Below, piece by piece: positions 1-45,571 of a DNA stretch of 45,571 bases (positions within the stretch are counted from its first letter, which is position 1; each line of letters opens with the position of its first letter). Under the pieces are notes generated by a model. It had not been told where the DNA came from and made no database searches. It was given only the letters and a program-made list of their open reading frames with translations. Origin of the DNA: a virus. A program made the position numbers and the translations under genes. The DNA lies in the IMG/VR virus record IMGVR_UViG_3300045988_182896, positions 1 to 45,571 of that record; one strand, 5' to 3'.

Positions 1-89
1 ATTTTTTTTGCAACTTTGATGAATTCTTCTATTTTATTTGCATTATTTGCAGCCTGCACTGTTCCGTCGAAAAATGGAATTGTTTTTGG
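1..89. repeat. Terminal direct repeat, copy 1 (identical to 45483..45571)
   Basis: Read by eye: attttttttgcaactttgatgaattc...aatggaattgtttttgg is present at both window ends, 89/89 identical. It lies inside a coding region. Confidence 0.95.
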
Positions 90-782
90 CTCTACTACGC
101 TTTCTATAGATTTTAGAAGGTCCCAGTGATAATCGTAAACATGTAACGAAGTTGGGCAATGAATATAATATCCAACATCTACGCCTATCTCATTGGCTAC
201 AATTTGTTGTAGTGCTGTGAAAACAAATAAATCATATTGCAGCCCCCAAATCAAATCATTGCTGCGCATGTAAGTTGTCAAGTTCAATTTATCATTACGA
301 ATCATGAAATGCAAATTCAATGTACATGGTACATCTTTTGTTTCATCCTCTATACCAAAGTGTGTATCATAAATTCTAATCACAGCTTGCCTTGTATCTT
401 TATCGGATTTCAATTTATCGCAAAGTTGTTGAATATGCGGTGCTATATATTGACCATAAGCTGAATTTATCGTTACACCATCATCACTATATTTATCCAT
501 TGTTTTGTTGAAAAATGAAAAATCACATACATTTGCTTTATCACTAAATAACTTATATGACTCAACTAATGCATAAATCAGACTAAATTTTCGTTTTTCA
601 CTATAAAACAAATTTCGTTTTGGGTCTGTAAGAATAATTGTTGGGTTAATTAGTTCCAACGTTTTGCCAATTCTACTTTCTACTTCATTGGCATTTGTCA
701 ATATTGCATCTCTAATTTCCATAAATATTTTTGCCCAACTATTACCTTTAAAAATGTTACCATAACATTTTAAATTTTCCAT
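1..782 (-). CDS. ThyA-superfamily dCMP hydroxymethylase-like enzyme (T4 gp42-like), N-terminal 260 codons. The ORF runs off the window start and continues at 45571..45284 (326 aa in total on the circle).
   Basis: Hand translation from ATG 782..780 (SD GAGAGGA upstream) is open down to position 3, and I checked every in-frame triplet for stops. Motifs RQAVIRIYD, DVPCTLNLHF, MRSNDLIWGLQYD and TSLHVY match recalled T4 gp42 motifs RRGIMIY, FMCTNTVQY, MRSNDVVFGFRNDY and GSLHVY. Confidence 0.75.
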   Translation of the reverse strand, partial: MENLKCYGNIFKGNSWAKIFMEIRDAILTNANEVESRIGKTLELINPTIILTDPKRNLFYSEKRKFSLIYALVESYKLFSDKANVCDFSFFNKTMDKYSDDGVTINSAYGQYIAPHIQQLCDKLKSDKDTRQAVIRIYDTHFGIEDETKDVPCTLNLHFMIRNDKLNLTTYMRSNDLIWGLQYDLFVFTALQQIVANEIGVDVGYYIHCPTSLHVYDYHWDLLKSIESVVEPKTIPFFDGTVQAANNANKIEEFIKVAKK

Positions 783-866: not shown

Positions 867-2003
867 CTACTGTATTAACTCCAGGACATTATTAACAAAA
901 TATTTTGCGTCCATAAACTTTAAATGCTTACGCATAAGTTGTATTGCATCTTTACGCTCTTTTGGGTGCTTTAGCATATATTCACCAATGGCTCTTACTT
1001 CATCTTTGTTATGAACAACTATAATATCCTTGAGCTCATCAGGAACATATTTTCCAATTACATCATCACCAAATTCCTCAATAAATAACGGCAAGCAACC
1101 GTAAAATACAGCCTCTATTAGTCTTGCCGTCACAAAGCCCTCTTTACAATATTCACGTTTTGCTAAAAGTGGTGTAACTGCACACTTTGAATAAGCCGTG
1201 TACATGTCTGCAGTTTGTAGTCTTCTCTTAAATTTTAAGTTTGGCCAAACTTCATTGCTATTTCTACCACTTTCCAGCCAATTACCATGAACAATAGATT
1301 TATCGGGTAAATATTTATTTATACACCAATCCCTCTCATATCTGTTTCCTACATATATAACAGCATCTCTTGGTCTTTTTATTTTAAAATCATTTATATG
1401 CAAGAAATCAAATGGTATCTCAATCCTTCTTGAAACAACACTTTCTTCCTTGCTCCATTTGTTACCAAGCTCAATTACATATTTAATATTGTTTCTGTAA
1501 ATATCCCCAATTGTCATTTTGTAATCTAAATCAAAAATAACGACTGGAATATTATGCTCATTTGCATATTGAATTAGGCTCCTACATATCACTAAATCTG
1601 GTTGCCAATCATCACCATAATCAACATCAATATTTCTACCTGGTATAGGCCATCTCCATTCTATAAGCATCATGTCTAAATCTGGCATATTTTCTAGTGT
1701 TACATAACCTTGTGTATCTCCTGCCGGTTTAAAAGCCATTATTTTTGCACTCTTGTCCATGCAATTATATGCAAACCTTCTATCCCTTTCACACCATGCA
1801 GAAAACATATTCTTACTGTCAAATTTAGCACAATTTATATCCCTATCTACTGTCAAACAGTGTACTTTATGGCCAGCATCAATAAATCCTTTTATAATAG
1901 TCCACGAATAAAAGGCATTGCCATCTGGTGTGCTTATCTGTCTACCATTGGCGTTATATTTTCTATCACCAAGGAAACCCCAATAAAAATAACCGACTTT
2001 CAT
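867..2003 (-). CDS. T4 beta-glucosyltransferase-like DNA glycosyltransferase (GT-B fold), 378 aa
   Basis: ORF track. AVIYVGNRYERDWCINKYL and VTARLIEAVFYGCLPLFIEEFG resemble recalled T4 BGT segments DVIYGGSFRSGQRESKMVEFL and ITLRVWETMASDAVMLIDEEFD. The N-terminus MKVGYFYWG resembles MKIAIINMG. Its start overlaps the upstream kinase stop (ATGA). Confidence 0.6.
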   Translation of the reverse strand: MKVGYFYWGFLGDRKYNANGRQISTPDGNAFYSWTIIKGFIDAGHKVHCLTVDRDINCAKFDSKNMFSAWCERDRRFAYNCMDKSAKIMAFKPAGDTQGYVTLENMPDLDMMLIEWRWPIPGRNIDVDYGDDWQPDLVICRSLIQYANEHNIPVVIFDLDYKMTIGDIYRNNIKYVIELGNKWSKEESVVSRRIEIPFDFLHINDFKIKRPRDAVIYVGNRYERDWCINKYLPDKSIVHGNWLESGRNSNEVWPNLKFKRRLQTADMYTAYSKCAVTPLLAKREYCKEGFVTARLIEAVFYGCLPLFIEEFGDDVIGKYVPDELKDIIVVHNKDEVRAIGEYMLKHPKERKDAIQLMRKHLKFMDAKYFVNNVLELIQ

Positions 2004-2551
2004 ATGCTAACCTTACCTTCCGTAAAAACTATTTTTTTATTTTGACCAATCCCTACACCAATCCACTCATGTACCCTAGACAAATCAACACTTGATATGT
2101 CTATTGTCATGCTATCTAATTTGCTTCTTTTAACTTCACTTTCAAATTTATTTTGTATATCATCCAAATATTCTTTCATTTTTTCATCTTCACAGTATTC
2201 TCTTTTTAATAACATCAACTTTGTGCCGTTTGGTATTCTTTCTTCTATTTCATCATTTACAGCCCTTAAACATTCTATATATGTTTTACCACAAACAAGC
2301 GGTGACATACTCCTATATACCATTTCCGTTATATGAAATCTATCAACAACAATATTTGTCTGTTCCGATAATGCTTTCAGAACCTCTATTTGTGAAATCA
2401 TTGATGTTCTATATTGATTTAATCTTTCGAAATGTTCTTCACCAATCAAATTACACCCTGTATCTTTGAAGTAACACCAACCATTATTTTTCAAATGCCT
2501 AGCAAACGTTGTTTTACCTACACGATTTGAGCCTTCTAAAATTAAAAGCAT
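2000..2551 (-). CDS. Thymidylate-kinase-like P-loop dNMP kinase, 183 aa
   Basis: Walker A LEGSNRVGKTT and a DRFHITEMVY motif (Tmk-like DRY..S..AY). It lies between the NTP pyrophosphatase and the GT. Confidence 0.6.
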   Translation of the reverse strand: MLLILEGSNRVGKTTFARHLKNNGWCYFKDTGCNLIGEEHFERLNQYRTSMISQIEVLKALSEQTNIVVDRFHITEMVYRSMSPLVCGKTYIECLRAVNDEIEERIPNGTKLMLLKREYCEDEKMKEYLDDIQNKFESEVKRSKLDSMTIDISSVDLSRVHEWIGVGIGQNKKIVFTEGKVSI

Positions 2552-2613: not shown

Positions 2614-2994
2614 TTATTCATTTTTTAATATTTGCCTTTTTATGTTGCGAATATTTTTTTCTTTAAACGCTTCAACAAATTCCTCGTAAGAAAATCCTGA
2701 ATACAATACTGCATTTATCAAGAAGTGCATTGCATCCACAAGTTCATCCAATTTATCAGCATTATTATTTTTTTCTTTCCTTTTACCACCAATTAACACT
2801 TTCCAGCGATTATCAGTTTGTATAGCCTCACAAAGTTCTACTATACAAGCTGTAGTCTGCAAATAAAATTTATCTGGTAAATCTTCAGGAACATCAATAC
2901 CACATGCTAACTTTTGAAATGAAATCTGCTTTTCGAACATTTCTCTAAGTACATCATTTTCTACGCTTTTTCTGCTTTCTTCTTGGCTCATCAT
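2614..2994 (-). CDS. All-alpha NTP pyrophosphohydrolase, T4 gp56 (dCTPase/dUTPase)-like
   Basis: C-terminal KLDELVDAMHFLINAVLYSGFSYEEFVEAFKEKNIRNIKRQ resembles recalled gp56 EIKFELVDIFHFVLNMFVGLGMNAEEIFKLYYLKNKENFARQ. I moved the start to ATG 2994 (SD-like GAGGA upstream). The 3036 start in the track reads through the antisense frame of the SSB acidic tail. Confidence 0.6.
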   Translation of the reverse strand: MMSQEESRKSVENDVLREMFEKQISFQKLACGIDVPEDLPDKFYLQTTACIVELCEAIQTDNRWKVLIGGKRKEKNNNADKLDELVDAMHFLINAVLYSGFSYEEFVEAFKEKNIRNIKRQILKNE

Positions 2995-3751
2995 CTTCAT
3001 CCTCATCATCTTCATCTTCGTCTTCGTCTTCATCATCTAAATCTTCATCAAAGTCGTCTTCATCTTCGTCATCGTCATCATCATAATCGAATGGAATATC
3101 ATCATCATCCTCATCTTCATCATCTTCAACAACGCGTCTCTTACTCTTTTTACTTGAGGTTTTCTTTTTATTCTTCTTTCTTACCTCTCTCTCTTCATCC
3201 TCATCATCTAAATCTTCAGCATCAAGGTCATCATAAGGAAAAGCTTCAAGCAACATTTTCAAAACTTTTTTCTTTGAATAAGCGTTCTCATCAAGCCTAA
3301 ATCTTTTTTTATCCATTGGAACAACAGAATAATTCGTTTCTGTACCAGAACCATTTCGCTGGATAACAAAATCTCTATCGCAAATCGTTCCATACGTTTC
3401 ATACATAGACACTAATGCTGGAATTGGCGAACATTTGTTTGCCTTGAACACGAACAATTCTTTTCTTTTTGTTTCATAGTTCCAAATAGTCCATACAAAA
3501 TTGCTTGTCGTTCTTGCCTCAGGATTCTTACAATTTGGGCATTTTTCACCATAATATGTGAGACATGGGTGGTTAAATTCTCCCCATTTATCGTGGAAGT
3601 CAACTTGAAAACCTTCCTCCATATCTTGCAAGAATCTAACACGCACTTTATTGCCCGCCTTCACATAAAAAACAGCACTTTTCTTATTGCCAGAATTTGC
3701 TATTTTTGTTTTCATGATTTCAACGAGCGATTTTGAACTTTCTTTTGCCAT
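2954..3751 (-). CDS. Single-stranded DNA-binding protein with a Zn-ribbon (gp32-like architecture) and a very long acidic tail, 265 aa
   Basis: HPCLTYYGEKCPNC is a His/Cys3 candidate Zn site. The C-terminal ~90 aa are poly-D/E and contain DDDDIPF. SD GGAGGT precedes ATG 3751. The gene sits next to the primase. Confidence 0.5.
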   Translation of the reverse strand: MAKESSKSLVEIMKTKIANSGNKKSAVFYVKAGNKVRVRFLQDMEEGFQVDFHDKWGEFNHPCLTYYGEKCPNCKNPEARTTSNFVWTIWNYETKRKELFVFKANKCSPIPALVSMYETYGTICDRDFVIQRNGSGTETNYSVVPMDKKRFRLDENAYSKKKVLKMLLEAFPYDDLDAEDLDDEDEEREVRKKNKKKTSSKKSKRRVVEDDEDEDDDDIPFDYDDDDDEDEDDFDEDLDDEDEDEDEDDEDEDDEPRRKQKKRRK

Positions 3752-5777: not shown

Positions 5778-6209
5778 TCAAAAAATTTTATTTTTTACCT
5801 CATCAAGTGCTTCATCAAATTGCTTTAAGCACATTCCATTTTCTATATACCCTTTTGCACATATGCATTTATATCTAGGTGACACTCTGGTGACATCAGA
5901 TATATATTGCTCGCACATAATATAAAATATTGCCATAACCATTTCGTTATCAATAGTTACACCTAATGACTTCCTATAATATAGTGTTGGATATCCTTCA
6001 TACATATCTAAATATTTTAAGTCATTTTCATCTATATCCCACAATAATACATCTAATACATCACCGTCTGATTTTAATAAAGTCAAATAACCCCTTCTAA
6101 AAAGCAATTTATAGCCATTTAGTTTTGCTACACCGATAATCTTTGCACTTGGGCATCTTGACCTCATTTGTTTGATATTTGTATTTGAACCATAAGCAGC
6201 ATAAATCAT
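5778..6209 (-). CDS. Gamma-glutamylcyclotransferase (GGCT)-like protein, 143 aa
   Basis: IYAAYGSNTNIKQMRSRCPSAKIIGVAKLNGYKLLF resembles the GGCT signature YFAYGSNL...R.P.A...A.L..F.L.F. LDMYEGYP supplies the candidate catalytic Glu. Confidence 0.65.
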   Translation of the reverse strand: MIYAAYGSNTNIKQMRSRCPSAKIIGVAKLNGYKLLFRRGYLTLLKSDGDVLDVLLWDIDENDLKYLDMYEGYPTLYYRKSLGVTIDNEMVMAIFYIMCEQYISDVTRVSPRYKCICAKGYIENGMCLKQFDEALDEVKNKIF

Positions 6210-37283: not shown

Positions 37284-37511
37284 TTAATATAACTCCTTGT
37301 TTAAGAATTCTTCCATCTCATCTTCTGATTTTATATTTCCTATTTTGTTTGCTAATCCCAAAATTGCTTTTGTATCACCACTTTTAAGCACATCAATCAC
37401 TCTTGCACTTTCAAATTTTGATGTATACGCCTTCTCACATTGACAGCAAGGTTCCTCTTGAACATCTTTATCAAAATATCTGCAATACTGGCATGCTTGT
37501 ACTTCACTCAT
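37284..37511 (-). CDS. Small Cys-rich protein, 75 aa
   Basis: CQYC...CCQC. Confidence 0.5.
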   Translation of the reverse strand: MSEVQACQYCRYFDKDVQEEPCCQCEKAYTSKFESARVIDVLKSGDTKAILGLANKIGNIKSEDEMEEFLNKELY

Positions 37512-37960
37512 ATTTTTTCTACCTCAATTCCTGCTTCATTTAATATATCTTTAGACAATTCGTCATTATAATCGTTTTTGTAAAATATATGTTTTATTCC
37601 GCAATTTATTATTGATTTTGCACAATTTATACATGGAAAGTGTGTACAATATAAAACTGCTCCATTTATGCTAATACCAATATTTGCCGCAGACAATATT
37701 GCATTCTCTTCCGCATGTACAGCCAAACAATATTCGTGTCCTTCTCCATGACCAAATCCAAGTTTTCTTTTCCTACAATATCCTATATCACACAAGCAAT
37801 TTTTTATCCTTGATGGTGCACCAGAATATCCAGTTGCAACTATTCTTCCATCTTTTACGATTATTGCTCCCTTTTGCTCACTAAAGCATGTACTTCTACT
37901 TGCAGTTAACTCTGCTATTTTCATAAAATACTCTTGCCAAGTTGGTCTTTTTTTATCCAT
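37508..37960 (-). CDS. dCMP deaminase (ComEB/T4 Cd type), 150 aa
   Basis: HAEENAI and the PCINCAK zinc-binding motif, with the overall cytidine/deoxycytidylate deaminase pattern. Confidence 0.85.
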   Translation of the reverse strand: MDKKRPTWQEYFMKIAELTASRSTCFSEQKGAIIVKDGRIVATGYSGAPSRIKNCLCDIGYCRKRKLGFGHGEGHEYCLAVHAEENAILSAANIGISINGAVLYCTHFPCINCAKSIINCGIKHIFYKNDYNDELSKDILNEAGIEVEKI

Positions 37961-42614: not shown

Positions 42615-45284
42615 TCACCAAATTTTTAAATTTTTAGAATAAATTTGTGAGTTGTAAGCTAATACTCTCCGCATATATTTTTTTTCAACAAACTCAAATG
42701 CTCCAGCTTCCCTCAATATTTCAATTGTTCTTCTTGTAATTGCCCTCCGTTTCATTTTTGGCAACTCTTGCCATTTTTCTTCAAAATCTGGATAATCAAT
42801 ATATGGCCCGTTTTCTATGATTATTTGCGCAGCTTTTTCACCTATACCTTTTATTGCACTTAACCCTTCCTGTATTACTTTATCGCCATGAAATTCTGTT
42901 ATTTCGTAGTTTACCGACCCATTAACATGCGGAAGCATTATAATACAACCATCTTTTACAGCTTTATTCTTGTATACGTCCCTCTTTTTATCATCACCTT
43001 CAAATTTTAAAGTTGCACACCAAAAATCTATAGGATGTTCCAATTTTAATTCCATTGCCTTGTAGCTAATTAGACTATATGCCGCACAATGCCCTTTATT
43101 AAATGAATATAATGTAACCCTATCATATAGCTTTTTTGCATCTTCTTTCGTGAAACCAGAGTATTTTACCGCACCTTTCACAAATGTATCTCTCAATGGG
43201 TCTTCATTCTCATCACTGCTTTGTTTTAATGATTTCATAACCTTGTCGACATCTTGCCATTTCATATGTGCAATATTTCTGCAAATTCTCATGACGTGCT
43301 CTTGGAATATAATAGTACCATATGATTCCTTTGTATACTCAAACCATGGCATATTCCTGTTATTTGTTATGTTCAATTTGCCTTCTACAAAATCATCTAA
43401 AACCCCCAACTGTAATGGCGCAGGTCTATTTAGCGCATTTGCTGCAATTAAATCTTGTATGTTGTCACATTCTATTCTTTCTAGTATTTCTTTTGCTGTA
43501 CCTTTTTCAAATTGGAATACACCTTCAGTTCTGCCTTCCCTAAATGCCTCAAATACATCATCATTATCAACATCTTGCCAATTTATCTTTTCTCCAGTAG
43601 TTCTACATATTTCATGCAAAATCGATGCTGTTGACAATCCTAATATATCCATTTTCAAAACATTTATTTTACCCAAATCATTTAAATCAAAACTTGTTTG
43701 AAGTATTCCGCCCCTTTTCATCAATGCTACTCTTTCACCAATTGGTCCAACTGTTATTGCGACACCAGCAGCATGCTTTCCAATAAACCTAACTTGACCA
43801 TATAATCTACAAAAATGCTTTACGATATTTTTGTATTTTCTATCGATTTGCCTTGCTAATGGATTATGCATTATCACATTTTCATCAGCTGTATCATCAA
43901 CAACAAGCTTTTCCAAAACATCCTTGAACTTCTTTTTATCTTCTGGCTCCATCTCGTATACCTTAGCTAAGTCGTTTGCTAAATTTTTTACTTTATAGTA
44001 CCCAAATGTTGCTATTTGTGCAGCTCTACCCTCATGACGTTTCATGATATATTCAAGAATTAAATGCCTTTCAGCTTGACCAAAATCCATATCAATATCT
44101 GGCAATTTCTTTTTATCTGGGCGTAAAAACCTTTCAAAGTCTGTCCCCATAACTATTGGGTCAACTTCTGTTATTCCTATCAAATTAGCAACTAGACTTC
44201 CACAAACAGAACCTCTTCCTGGTCCAACAGGGATGTTATTGTCTTTCGCGTATTTTACTATGTCATAACAAAGTAAAAAATAATCTTGTAAACCCAAATC
44301 GTCTATAATAACACCAAGCTCATATTTTGCTCTTTTCTTATATTCTCCAAATGATTTTTTACTTAATCCCTCTTTCTTTACTTTTCTTTTTAGCCCTCTT
44401 TTTGTTAAGCTCCTTAATTTCTCATCCGATGGCATTCCCCAATCAAATGTTGGTACTGATTCAGCAAATTCAAGTTGTACATCACATCTATTAGCTAGCT
44501 TTTGTGTATTTGCTATAGCTTTTAATGCTCTTTTACCATGCATTTCATTTGTTTTTAAGTAAACTTCTTCACCAGTAGGCATATACCGTTCTGAATAATC
44601 CGCTATATTTACGTGACCAGCTATCTTATGCATGACCAAATACGTATCGTATTCTTCCTTTTTTGTATAGTGACTATCACATGTTACTATGCACTCTATG
44701 CCTAACTTTTCACCTAAATCTAAAACAAATTCATTTGCACCTTCTTGGTCACAATCATCTAAATGATACGGCATTATTTCCATATAGAATCTGTCACCAA
44801 AAATTTCTTTAAATTTTTTTGCAGCCTTTATAGCATTGCTTTTCTTGCCCTGTAAAAACATATTTGGTATATACCCTGCAACACAAGCAGAACTAACAAT
44901 CAAACCTTCATTATATTTCTTTAACAATTCAAATGTTACAGTTGCGGTTCTATAAAAATATTTATCATTCGCTTCAGTTAATAACTGCGATAAATTTTTA
45001 TAACCAACATTATTCATAGCAAAAATACACAAATGATATTTCTTTTTTTCTTGATTAAATTTAGGCTGAAAGTATGCCTCTACACCAAGTATTGGTTTTA
45101 TGCCAACTTCATTACATGCTGTATAATGTTCTATAATGCCGGATACTGTACCATGGTCTGTTAAGCCTAAAGCAGTTTGTCCCATATCCTTAGCATGTTT
45201 TGCAGCATCTATAGCTTTACCATAACCATCAAATTGTGAATGTTGTGCATGTCTATGTAAATTAACAAAGCAATTTTTATACAT
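42615..45284 (-). CDS. dnaE: DNA polymerase III alpha subunit-like replicative polymerase (PHP + DnaE core), 889 aa
   Basis: The N-terminal PHP motif NLHRHAQHSQFDGYG...LGLTDHGTVSG and a DnaE-like core (GPGRGSVCGSLVANLIGIT, PDIDMDF). Start set at ATG 45284, overlapping the upstream TAA (TAATG). Confidence 0.85.
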   Translation of the reverse strand: MYKNCFVNLHRHAQHSQFDGYGKAIDAAKHAKDMGQTALGLTDHGTVSGIIEHYTACNEVGIKPILGVEAYFQPKFNQEKKKYHLCIFAMNNVGYKNLSQLLTEANDKYFYRTATVTFELLKKYNEGLIVSSACVAGYIPNMFLQGKKSNAIKAAKKFKEIFGDRFYMEIMPYHLDDCDQEGANEFVLDLGEKLGIECIVTCDSHYTKKEEYDTYLVMHKIAGHVNIADYSERYMPTGEEVYLKTNEMHGKRALKAIANTQKLANRCDVQLEFAESVPTFDWGMPSDEKLRSLTKRGLKRKVKKEGLSKKSFGEYKKRAKYELGVIIDDLGLQDYFLLCYDIVKYAKDNNIPVGPGRGSVCGSLVANLIGITEVDPIVMGTDFERFLRPDKKKLPDIDMDFGQAERHLILEYIMKRHEGRAAQIATFGYYKVKNLANDLAKVYEMEPEDKKKFKDVLEKLVVDDTADENVIMHNPLARQIDRKYKNIVKHFCRLYGQVRFIGKHAAGVAITVGPIGERVALMKRGGILQTSFDLNDLGKINVLKMDILGLSTASILHEICRTTGEKINWQDVDNDDVFEAFREGRTEGVFQFEKGTAKEILERIECDNIQDLIAANALNRPAPLQLGVLDDFVEGKLNITNNRNMPWFEYTKESYGTIIFQEHVMRICRNIAHMKWQDVDKVMKSLKQSSDENEDPLRDTFVKGAVKYSGFTKEDAKKLYDRVTLYSFNKGHCAAYSLISYKAMELKLEHPIDFWCATLKFEGDDKKRDVYKNKAVKDGCIIMLPHVNGSVNYEITEFHGDKVIQEGLSAIKGIGEKAAQIIIENGPYIDYPDFEEKWQELPKMKRRAITRRTIEILREAGAFEFVEKKYMRRVLAYNSQIYSKNLKIW

Positions 45285-45571
45285 TACTTGTACCACCTTT
45301 TGAAATAACATTTATAATTTGCTATGTCTTCACTTTCCAAATCTACATAATCTAATAAACCAAACTTGTACAATATTTCATTTATTATTAACTTCATTTG
45401 TATATTACTGTCATTATAGTTATCTAAAAATCTTAGTATTTTAACTTTATATAATATATTATTATTAACTGATTCGGCTTGCATTTTTTTTGCAACTTTG
45501 ATGAATTCTTCTATTTTATTTGCATTATTTGCAGCCTGCACTGTTCCGTCGAAAAATGGAATTGTTTTTGG
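45284..45571 (-). CDS. C-terminal part of the dCMP hydroxymethylase-like gene (continuation of 782..1 across the junction)
   Basis: 45483..45571 duplicates 1..89. The frame is continuous (K-K-M-Q-A-E-S across the junction). The total is 981 nt on the 45,482-bp circle. Confidence 0.75.
   Translation of the reverse strand, partial: PKTIPFFDGTVQAANNANKIEEFIKVAKKMQAESVNNNILYKVKILRFLDNYNDSNIQMKLIINEILYKFGLLDYVDLESEDIANYKCYFKRWYK
45483..45571. repeat. Terminal direct repeat, copy 2 (identical to 1..89)
   Basis: Direct comparison of the two window ends. Confidence 0.95.

Follow-up and report, generated by a model that had tools for sequence, protein, structure and literature searches.

The IMG/VR virus record IMGVR_UViG_3300045988_182896 comprises 45,571 nucleotides, all of which were analysed (hereafter the window), and carries at its left edge, on the minus strand, a gene of the thymidylate synthase (ThyA) family. 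Its open reading frame (ORF) occupies 1..782, starting with the ATG at 782..780 and covering 260 codons plus 2 nt, including the whole catalytic core, and is incomplete at the left edge. Since bases 1..89 are an exact 89-bp repeat of bases 45483..45571 (terminal overlap), the contig is circularly closed or terminally redundant, with a unique genome of 45,482 bp. The coding sequence resumes on the minus strand at 45482..45284, which encodes residues 261 to 326 and the stop codon (45286..45284), giving a joined protein of 326 amino acids (aa) that is 98% identical to the database protein P0001. A truncated gene or a pseudogene at the window edge was ruled out, because the C terminus lies at the opposite end of the circular contig and the gene thus spans the junction. 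We consider it likely that this gene encodes a folate-dependent deoxycytidylate (dCMP) 5-hydroxymethyltransferase of the functional class of T4 gp42 (EC 2.1.2.8), feeding a DNA that contains glycosylated 5-hydroxymethylcytosine (5hmC). Substrate, product and in vivo pathway are deduced here from the residues, their alignment and conservation, the fold and the gene neighbourhood.

The protein belongs to the ThyA superfamily, as it matched Pfam PF00303 (Thymidylat_synt) with an E value of 7.7e-19 and 68.3 bits against a cutoff of 24.3, and PHROG 5131 with an E value of 5.8e-56. It is not a canonical thymidylate synthase (TS; EC 2.1.1.45): the best NCBIfam ThyA equivalog model scored 66.4 bits against a cutoff of 174.6, the other models scored 22 to 61 bits against cutoffs of 108 to 576, and the Asn177, His147, Leu143 and C-terminal lid of ThyA are all missing. 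A motif scan of the six frames of the whole window for a second ThyA-like gene, which might be the true thymidylate synthase, found none. An AlphaFold2 (AF2) model, built on P0001 with 120 sequences, reached a predicted local distance difference test (pLDDT) score of 93.8 and displayed a strand at residues 165 to 172, a helix at 177 to 199 and further helices at 241 to 325; this strand-then-helix order is presumably the same as that around Arg166 and Asn177 of ThyA. When the model was searched with Foldseek, MilA came first over its full length (template modeling [TM] score, 0.77), followed by AfhB, many TS entries and T4 gp42, with a probability of 1.00. The position of the ThyA C-terminal lid is taken in the model by a distal helical domain like that of MilA, and it is this domain that is encoded beyond the junction.

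The active site was compared with those of the 120 best database homologues, whose identity goes down to about 30%. The catalytic nucleophile is Cys153 (TGT, 324..326, minus strand, as are all codons given here), equivalent to C146 of E. coli ThyA and C148 of T4 gp42; it lies in the motif DVPCT (residues 150 to 154) and is invariant in 120/120 homologues. The pyrimidine-specificity position, N177 in E. coli ThyA, D179 in T4 gp42 and D186 in MilA, is occupied by Asp184 (GAT, 231..233), which closes the stretch MRSNDLIWGLQYD (residues 172 to 184) ten residues past Ser174. Both residues had been singled out in an original prediction made from the DNA letters, and both were confirmed, as were the two comparator motifs that it quoted: the real sequence of E. 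coli ThyA reads QRSCDVFLGLPFN (in a longer reading, RSCDVFLGLPFN) and carries N177, while that of T4 gp42 reads MRSNDVVFGFRND (longer reading, RSNDVVFGFRND) and carries D179.

The distance from the catalytic Cys to the Asp or Asn is 31 residues, free of gaps, in BLASTP alignments to T4 gp42 and E. coli ThyA, and the same spacing was found in HMMER alignments to MilA, AfhB and one bacterial TS and in MAFFT alignments of the 120 homologues and nine references. An Asn or a gap at the N177/D179 position in a structure-based alignment had been named at the outset as the case that would speak against cytosine specificity; the alignments to ThyA, T4 gp42, MilA and AfhB show a gapless Asp instead, the structural side of the comparison consisting of these gapless sequence alignments, the strand-then-helix order of the AF2 model and the full-fold Foldseek matches (summary scores). 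Asp was moreover present in all 120 homologues, and because it is invariant although a single G-to-A transition would give Asn, Asp184 is not a matter of chance or of a sequencing error.

That Asp replaces Asn in cytosine-directed members of the family has been known since 1992. The N177D substitution switches ThyA from dUMP to dCMP, the rule has already been used for metagenome mining, and a metagenome-wide association study (MetaGPA) found positions 177 and 147 to be the two best discriminators of modified-cytosine contigs (PMC8670742); a study of MilA reached the same conclusion on cytosine specificity for Asp186 (PMC5175136). Three further rules concern the chemistry and the sugar. An acidic residue in place of L143 (L143D/E) correlates with a hydroxymethyl rather than a methyl product, D169N is diagnostic of the flavin-dependent 5-hydroxy-dCMP synthases RB69 gp48, DLP3 gp80 and others (PMC13326640), and Lys133 and Ala176 of MilA, against Arg and Ser elsewhere, separate ribo from deoxyribo substrates (PMC5175136).

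In E. coli numbering, the signature of the window enzyme reads R21, E58, Y94, R126, D143, C146, T147, M165, R166, S167, N168, D169, G173, D177, H207 and Y209. The core catalytic set (R21, E58, Y94, R126, C146, R166, S167, G173, H207 and Y209) is kept as in ThyA, and the window residues C153, E74, Y109, R173, H214 and Y216 are invariant in the 120 homologues. The enzyme departs from ThyA at position 127 (Gln instead of Arg, Gln being common to SPO1 gp29), at 143 (Asp150, codon 333..335, instead of Leu), at 147 (Thr154, codon 321..323, instead of His), at 165 (Met instead of Gln), at 168 (Asn instead of Cys) and at 177 (Asp instead of Asn). Thr at 147 is typical of cytosine-directed enzymes, His of ThyA and Asn of dUMP hydroxymethylases. 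Asp176 (codon 255..257), equivalent to D169, is as in ThyA and invariant in the 120 homologues, which argues against a 5-hydroxylase, and Arg131 and Ser174, equivalent to R126 and S167, fit a deoxyribo substrate (Arg173-Ser174, the counterpart of R166-S167, is encoded at 261..266). At positions 143, 147, 165, 168, 169 and 177 the enzyme is identical to T4 gp42 (D, T, M, N, D and D, respectively), and the pattern recurs in 120/120 homologues. With Asp at 177, 143 and 169 and with Arg and Ser at the sugar positions, the pattern is thus that of a dCMP hydroxymethylase. The predicted direction of the transferase to dCMP rather than dUMP held in every alignment tried and agrees with the published rules (PMC8670742, PMC5175136, PMC13326640).

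Directly upstream, in the same operon, lies a gene for a 378-aa glycosyltransferase (GT) of the GT-B fold (867..2003, minus strand; Pfam Glyco_trans_1_2, E=4.2e-7). The top four Foldseek matches of its AF2 model (pLDDT, 93.8) in the PDB were all T4 beta-glucosyltransferase (E=2.5e-9 to 1.4e-8; TM, 0.55 to 0.66; 13% identity), making it, by predicted fold, a candidate DNA 5hmC glycosyltransferase. A tblastn search of 50,697 GenBank phage records at E<=1e-3 gave no match, nor did PHROG or NCBIfam, so that sequence comparison does not tie the GT to phage DNA glycosyltransferases already described; in metagenomes it has more than 500 homologues. The assignment is based on Pfam, the predicted fold and synteny. 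In addition, a natural GT::ThyA fusion of 613 aa (P0203) is encoded on two contigs from different sequencing runs (L012, 5001-6842; L013, 4661-6502), which constitutes a Rosetta-stone link between the functions of the two proteins. The original prediction had taken the adjacent GT as an argument for a hydroxymethyl handle, and this argument is strengthened by both the T4 beta-glucosyltransferase-like predicted fold and the fusions.

Next upstream on the same strand is a gene for a 183-aa P-loop nucleotide kinase-like protein (2000..2551, minus strand), a candidate hydroxymethyl-dCMP (hm-dCMP) kinase analogous to T4 gp1. Its matches are all weak ones to thymidylate kinases (Pfam, E=2.9e-4, below the cutoff; PHROG 761, E=8e-7; TIGR00041, E=2.1e-5, below the cutoff), and its position is conserved in relatives. 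It is followed at 2614..3036 (minus strand) by a gene for an all-alpha nucleoside triphosphate (NTP) pyrophosphohydrolase of the dUTPase_2/MazG-like type (Pfam PF08761, E=3.1e-8; PHROG 173, E=3.2e-14), a candidate dCTPase that would exclude dCTP and supply dCMP; relatives carry MazG or dUTPase_2 in the same slot. Sequence searches of the PDB with the pyrophosphatase and the kinase gave no significant match, and when the kinase was compared with its RB69 counterpart p045 by BLASTP, the P-loop was all that aligned; the substrates of both enzymes are therefore assigned from position alone. Further upstream, beyond the pyrophosphohydrolase, lie genes for a single-stranded-DNA-binding (SSB) protein and DnaG primase, while downstream of the ThyA homologue, across the junction, come DNA polymerase III alpha subunit (Pol III alpha), RecA, a Cas4-like exonuclease and RuvC. 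The cassette of pyrophosphatase, kinase, GT, ThyA (with Asp), Pol III alpha and RecA recurs in several relatives from independent samples, in some of which the GT is preceded by an additional gene for a UDP-galactopyranose mutase or a radical-SAM enzyme; in relative L014, a pyrophosphatase domain match was not recorded in the cassette.

These genes suggest a pathway by which the phage probably replaces the cytosine of its DNA with sugar-coated hydroxymethylcytosine. The pyrophosphatase (MazG/dUTPase_2-like) would deplete dCTP and yield dCMP, Cys153 would attack C6 of the dCMP, and Asp184 would read and protonate the N3/N4 face of the cytosine. In ThyA, Asp169 contacts the pterin of the folate. 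Methylene-tetrahydrofolate, its pterin held by the kept Asp176, would give one carbon to C5, and the resulting exocyclic methylene intermediate would be hydrated, not reduced, owing to Asp150 and to an open active site without the ThyA C-terminal lid. The P-loop kinase would then phosphorylate hm-dCMP to its diphosphate, hm-dCTP would be inserted by the phage Pol III alpha, and the adjacent GT-B glycosyltransferase would glycosylate 5hmC in the DNA, shielding the genome from host nucleases.

Among the alternatives, the one that survives best, although we judge it unlikely, would make the gene product a flavin-dependent 5-hydroxy-dCMP synthase like RB69 gp48, DLP3 gp80 or HY126 AfhB, in which case the GT would link a sugar directly to 5-hydroxycytosine by an ether. 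Flavin-dependent 5-hydroxylation of dCMP is a third chemistry of ThyA homologues, described in 2025-26 (PMC13326640), which the options of the original prediction had left out. Like the window enzyme, these synthases have the ThyA fold with Asp177, an acidic residue at 143 and Thr147, their genes cluster with a nucleotide kinase and glycosyltransferases, and their best structural match is also MilA; AfhB (PDB 9IQC/9IQU, identified as AfhB through the Foldseek descriptions) was the second-best PDB match of the window enzyme both by sequence (E=8.5e-18) and by fold. The diagnostic D169N is nevertheless absent, since the synthases have Asn (PMC13326640) where the window enzyme and 120/120 homologues have Asp. 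RB69 gp48 and AfhB carry Glu143, Gln168, Asn169, Val173 and Phe209, and the window enzyme, about 28% identical to enzymes of this type, differs from them at all five positions, though 143 is acidic in both; its Asn, Gly and Tyr at 168, 173 and 209 are those of T4 gp42, MilA and the Enterococcus phage VPE25 homologue.

It is very unlikely that the enzyme is instead a dCMP methyltransferase, be it of the XP12 type or a naturally occurring N177D ThyA, making 5-methyl-dCMP and thereby 5-methylcytosine in the phage DNA. Engineered ThyA N177D does methylate dCMP (cited in PMC8670742), and Asp184 by itself cannot separate methyl from hydroxymethyl transfer. The original prediction went further and held that sequence cannot separate the two at all, which proved too cautious: Asp150 follows the hydroxymethylase pattern, as in T4 gp42, MilA and SPO1 gp29, and where ThyA has a C-terminal lid that closes over the folate, the window enzyme has the MilA-like distal helical domain. 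Furthermore, the conserved and sometimes fused GT needs a hydroxyl acceptor. At the residue level, methylation was judged by the L143 rule alone, XP12-type enzymes lying outside the comparison.

Even less probable is a dUMP hydroxymethylase of the SPO1 gp29 type, fed by a phage dCMP deaminase, with the GT glycosylating 5-hydroxymethyluracil (5hmU). SPO1 gp29 and its kin are among the best-scoring annotated phage matches (33.6% identity, E=1e-30), form the nearest reference branch in a rough neighbor-joining (NJ) tree, and share with the window enzyme Asp143, Arg126-Gln127 and a long C-terminal extension. A dCMP deaminase of 150 aa is indeed encoded at 37508..37960 on the minus strand (Pfam PF00383, E=8.5e-23; PHROG 174, E=3.7e-52). 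However, SPO1 gp29 and the enzyme of Montesquieu, which is encoded within a thymidine-hypermodification cluster, carry Asn at 177 after an insertion of one residue, Asn also at 147, and either Asn or Ile at 165 (Asn in SPO1 gp29), in line with a uracil substrate, whereas Asp, Thr and Met stand at these positions in the window enzyme and in all cytosine-directed enzymes.

The homologue in the cultured Agathobaculum phage AB434P2 (OP172633; L016, 3838-4500) might seem to favour a dUMP substrate too, since it is annotated as a "deoxyuridylate hydroxymethyltransferase". In this protein, the catalytic Cys is followed by Thr and the N177 position holds Asp (CT...RSCD...PYD), and because it bears the cytosine signature, the dUMP label is probably wrong, presumably through annotation transfer; judging from these residues, the AB434P2 enzyme is probably cytosine-directed. 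The genes on either side of it comprise two that are GT-like, one that is cytidylyltransferase-like and one for a P-loop kinase whose N terminus resembles that of the window kinase.

Equally improbable is a route in which hm-dCMP is made and then deaminated by the phage dCMP deaminase to hm-dUMP, leading to a 5hmU derivative or to the modification of both pyrimidines, for although the deaminase is encoded, could in principle act on hm-dCMP and has a T4 counterpart that can do so in vitro, deamination of hm-dCMP as the main pathway is without precedent, T4 keeps thymine with both gp42 and dCMP deaminase present, the deaminase gene does not adjoin the cassette (about 8.8 kb away around the circle; about 36.7 kb in window coordinates), and the AT-rich genome (32.6% GC) offers the simpler reason that the deaminase probably boosts the dTTP supply.

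The dCMP hydroxymethylase reading is best appreciated against T4. T4 gp42 (PDB 1B5D/1B5E/1B49) has the same fold (Foldseek, E=9.4e-13), and the accessory logic is alike, T4 having a pyrophosphatase (gp56 dCTPase), a kinase (gp1 dNMP kinase) and a GT, with gene 42 adjoining beta-gt. The window enzyme differs from gp42 by Gln instead of Arg at 127 and by about 85 extra C-terminal residues that form the helical domain, and the window GT differs from T4 beta-glucosyltransferase by its low identity and its Glyco_trans_1_2 family. The window pyrophosphatase is of the all-alpha MazG/dUTPase_2 type, whereas T4 gp56 represents another enzyme type. Unlike T4, the window phage has a genome of about 45 kb and a likely gut Clostridia-type Firmicute host. 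Identity to gp42 is 23 to 29%, and the NJ tree does not place the two in the same clade, the window clade being closer to SPO1-type and MilA-type sequences; the window enzyme is thus homologous and functionally analogous to T4 gp42 but not its orthologue.

Closer in sequence are the ThyA homologues of Enterococcus phages VPE25/VFW and Lactobacillus phage ATCCB, which have the Asp/Thr/Asp signature at 38 to 39% identity by tblastn (38% for VPE25) and 35 to 41% over the trimmed core. In ATCCB a beta-glucosyltransferase gene adjoins the ThyA homologue, and in VPE25 one gene (dUTPase) lies between them; as in relatives L010 and L014 of the window phage, genes for a UDP-galactopyranose mutase or galactofuranosyl-transferase-like proteins are nearby. 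VPE25 DNA withstands both bisulfite conversion and MspI but is a substrate of PvuRts1I, a behaviour that fits glycosylated 5hmC, and the GT of these phages is a recognisable homologue of T4 beta-glucosyltransferase, about 40% identical to it (PMC4999554). The window GT differs in this respect, given its lack of tblastn matches in phages, and the ThyA homologues of VPE25 and ATCCB for their part have Arg-Arg instead of Arg-Gln at 126-127 and a shorter C terminus.

MilA, the CMP 5-hydroxymethylase of mildiomycin biosynthesis (PDB 5B6D/5JNH), was the best PDB match by sequence (E=3.9e-19) and the best full-length fold match, C-terminal helical domain included, and it shares Asp at 143 and 177, Thr at 147 and Asp at 169 with the window enzyme. 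Unlike the latter, MilA is bacterial and belongs to secondary metabolism. Arg131 and Ser174, which stand in place of the Lys133 and Ala176 that favour ribo-CMP, speak against a CMP hydroxymethylase (MilA/BcmA) as the product of the window gene.

Several observations weigh against a dCMP hydroxymethylase. For this phage and for its close relatives (at least 50% identity), the assignment is a prediction. The identity to T4 gp42 is low, and in the NJ tree the clade falls next to the dUMP hydroxymethylases of the SPO1 type, whose Arg126-Gln127 it shares; because overall similarity does not group the enzyme with gp42, the call depends on a handful of signature residues, and the L143 and D169 rules among these are correlative, drawn from the limited number of enzymes tested. 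The matches that identify the pyrophosphatase and the kinase are weak, being below curated cutoffs or unspecific, and the specificities given to the accessory enzymes are guesses. The dCMP deaminase of the phage is a further point, since pathways based on dUMP require such a gene. Finally, GATC occurs at 5 sites in the whole window (11583, 19621, 32120, 33153 and 34266), where a 3-mer Markov model expects about 111, and this scarcity is unexpected if every cytosine carries a protective modification. One reading is that the host directs a defence against GATC to which the modification is no obstacle. GATC is depleted in relatives L008, L010, L012 and L015 as well but not in VPE25 or L014, and CATG stands at about half of its expectation in the window.

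The sugar on the DNA may vary within the lineage. A UDP-galactopyranose mutase (GLF) gene lies between the kinase and GT genes in L010 (5612-6742) and L014 (1912-3886), and L014 also has a radical-SAM enzyme, which hints that the sugar differs among members and may, for example, be galactofuranose. More broadly, we offer the tentative and rather doubtful idea that this large, uncultured lineage of gut phages of about 45 to 55 kb may put undescribed sugars on 5hmC, and that its dCMP hydroxymethylase may stem from the SPO1-type branch by a natural Asn-to-Asp switch accompanied by changes at 147 and 165. The first part, with galactofuranosyl or further tailored hexoses as possible sugars, draws on the absence of the GT family from the 50,697 phage records and on the UDP-galactopyranose mutase and radical-SAM genes of the cassette; the second, if true, would be nature's own version of the classic N177D experiment.

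Since the Asp-for-Asn rule is decades old and has already been mined in metagenomes, the finding confirms rather than changes current understanding. The T4 paradigm and its anti-restriction strategy are known, and the window provides a new example in a different phage lineage; what is new is membership only, in that the lineage is abundant and uncultured, its enzyme combines a MilA-like C-terminal domain with Arg-Gln at 126-127, and its GT belongs to a family not known from sequenced phages. Full replacement of cytosine by glycosylated 5hmC would protect the DNA against many restriction enzymes and some CRISPR nucleases and would distort sequencing and bisulfite-type assays. The signature could therefore serve to predict which metagenomic phages have modified DNA and to flag likely misannotations, such as that of the AB434P2 homologue, while the uncharacterised GT family is a pointer to new DNA-glycosylating enzymes.

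As to the phage itself, a megablast search of GenBank phages with the first 12 kb of the window gave no match, and the cultured phages nearest to it by Pol III alpha, about 40% identical, come from the gut and infect Agathobaculum and Clostridium (OP172633, OP172775). It is likely a gut-type bacteriophage with a gut Clostridia-type Firmicute as host. Almost all long ORFs are on the minus strand, and the base composition is very strongly asymmetric, the plus strand having 11.6% G against 21.0% C.

Some gene boundaries around the cassette deserve mention. The 3' end of the ThyA-family coding sequence overlaps the program-called start of Pol III alpha (ATG at 45311) by 28 nt (45284..45311), and in relatives the two genes overlap by 8 nt, which points either to coupled translation or to a Pol III alpha gene that truly begins later. 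At the other end of the cassette, the called start of the pyrophosphatase overlaps the gene for the SSB-like protein (2954..3751, minus strand) with a Met/Lys-rich stretch; its homologues have 114 to 131 aa, and the true start is probably downstream of 3036. The C-terminal end of the SSB-like protein is a very long Asp/Glu-rich tail. A gamma-glutamyl cyclotransferase/AIG2-like gene is present at 5778..6209 on the minus strand (Pfam GGACT, E=5e-13); in relative L008 (1860-3185), an AIG2-like gene is followed by an Amidoligase_2 gene, the latter being absent from the window.

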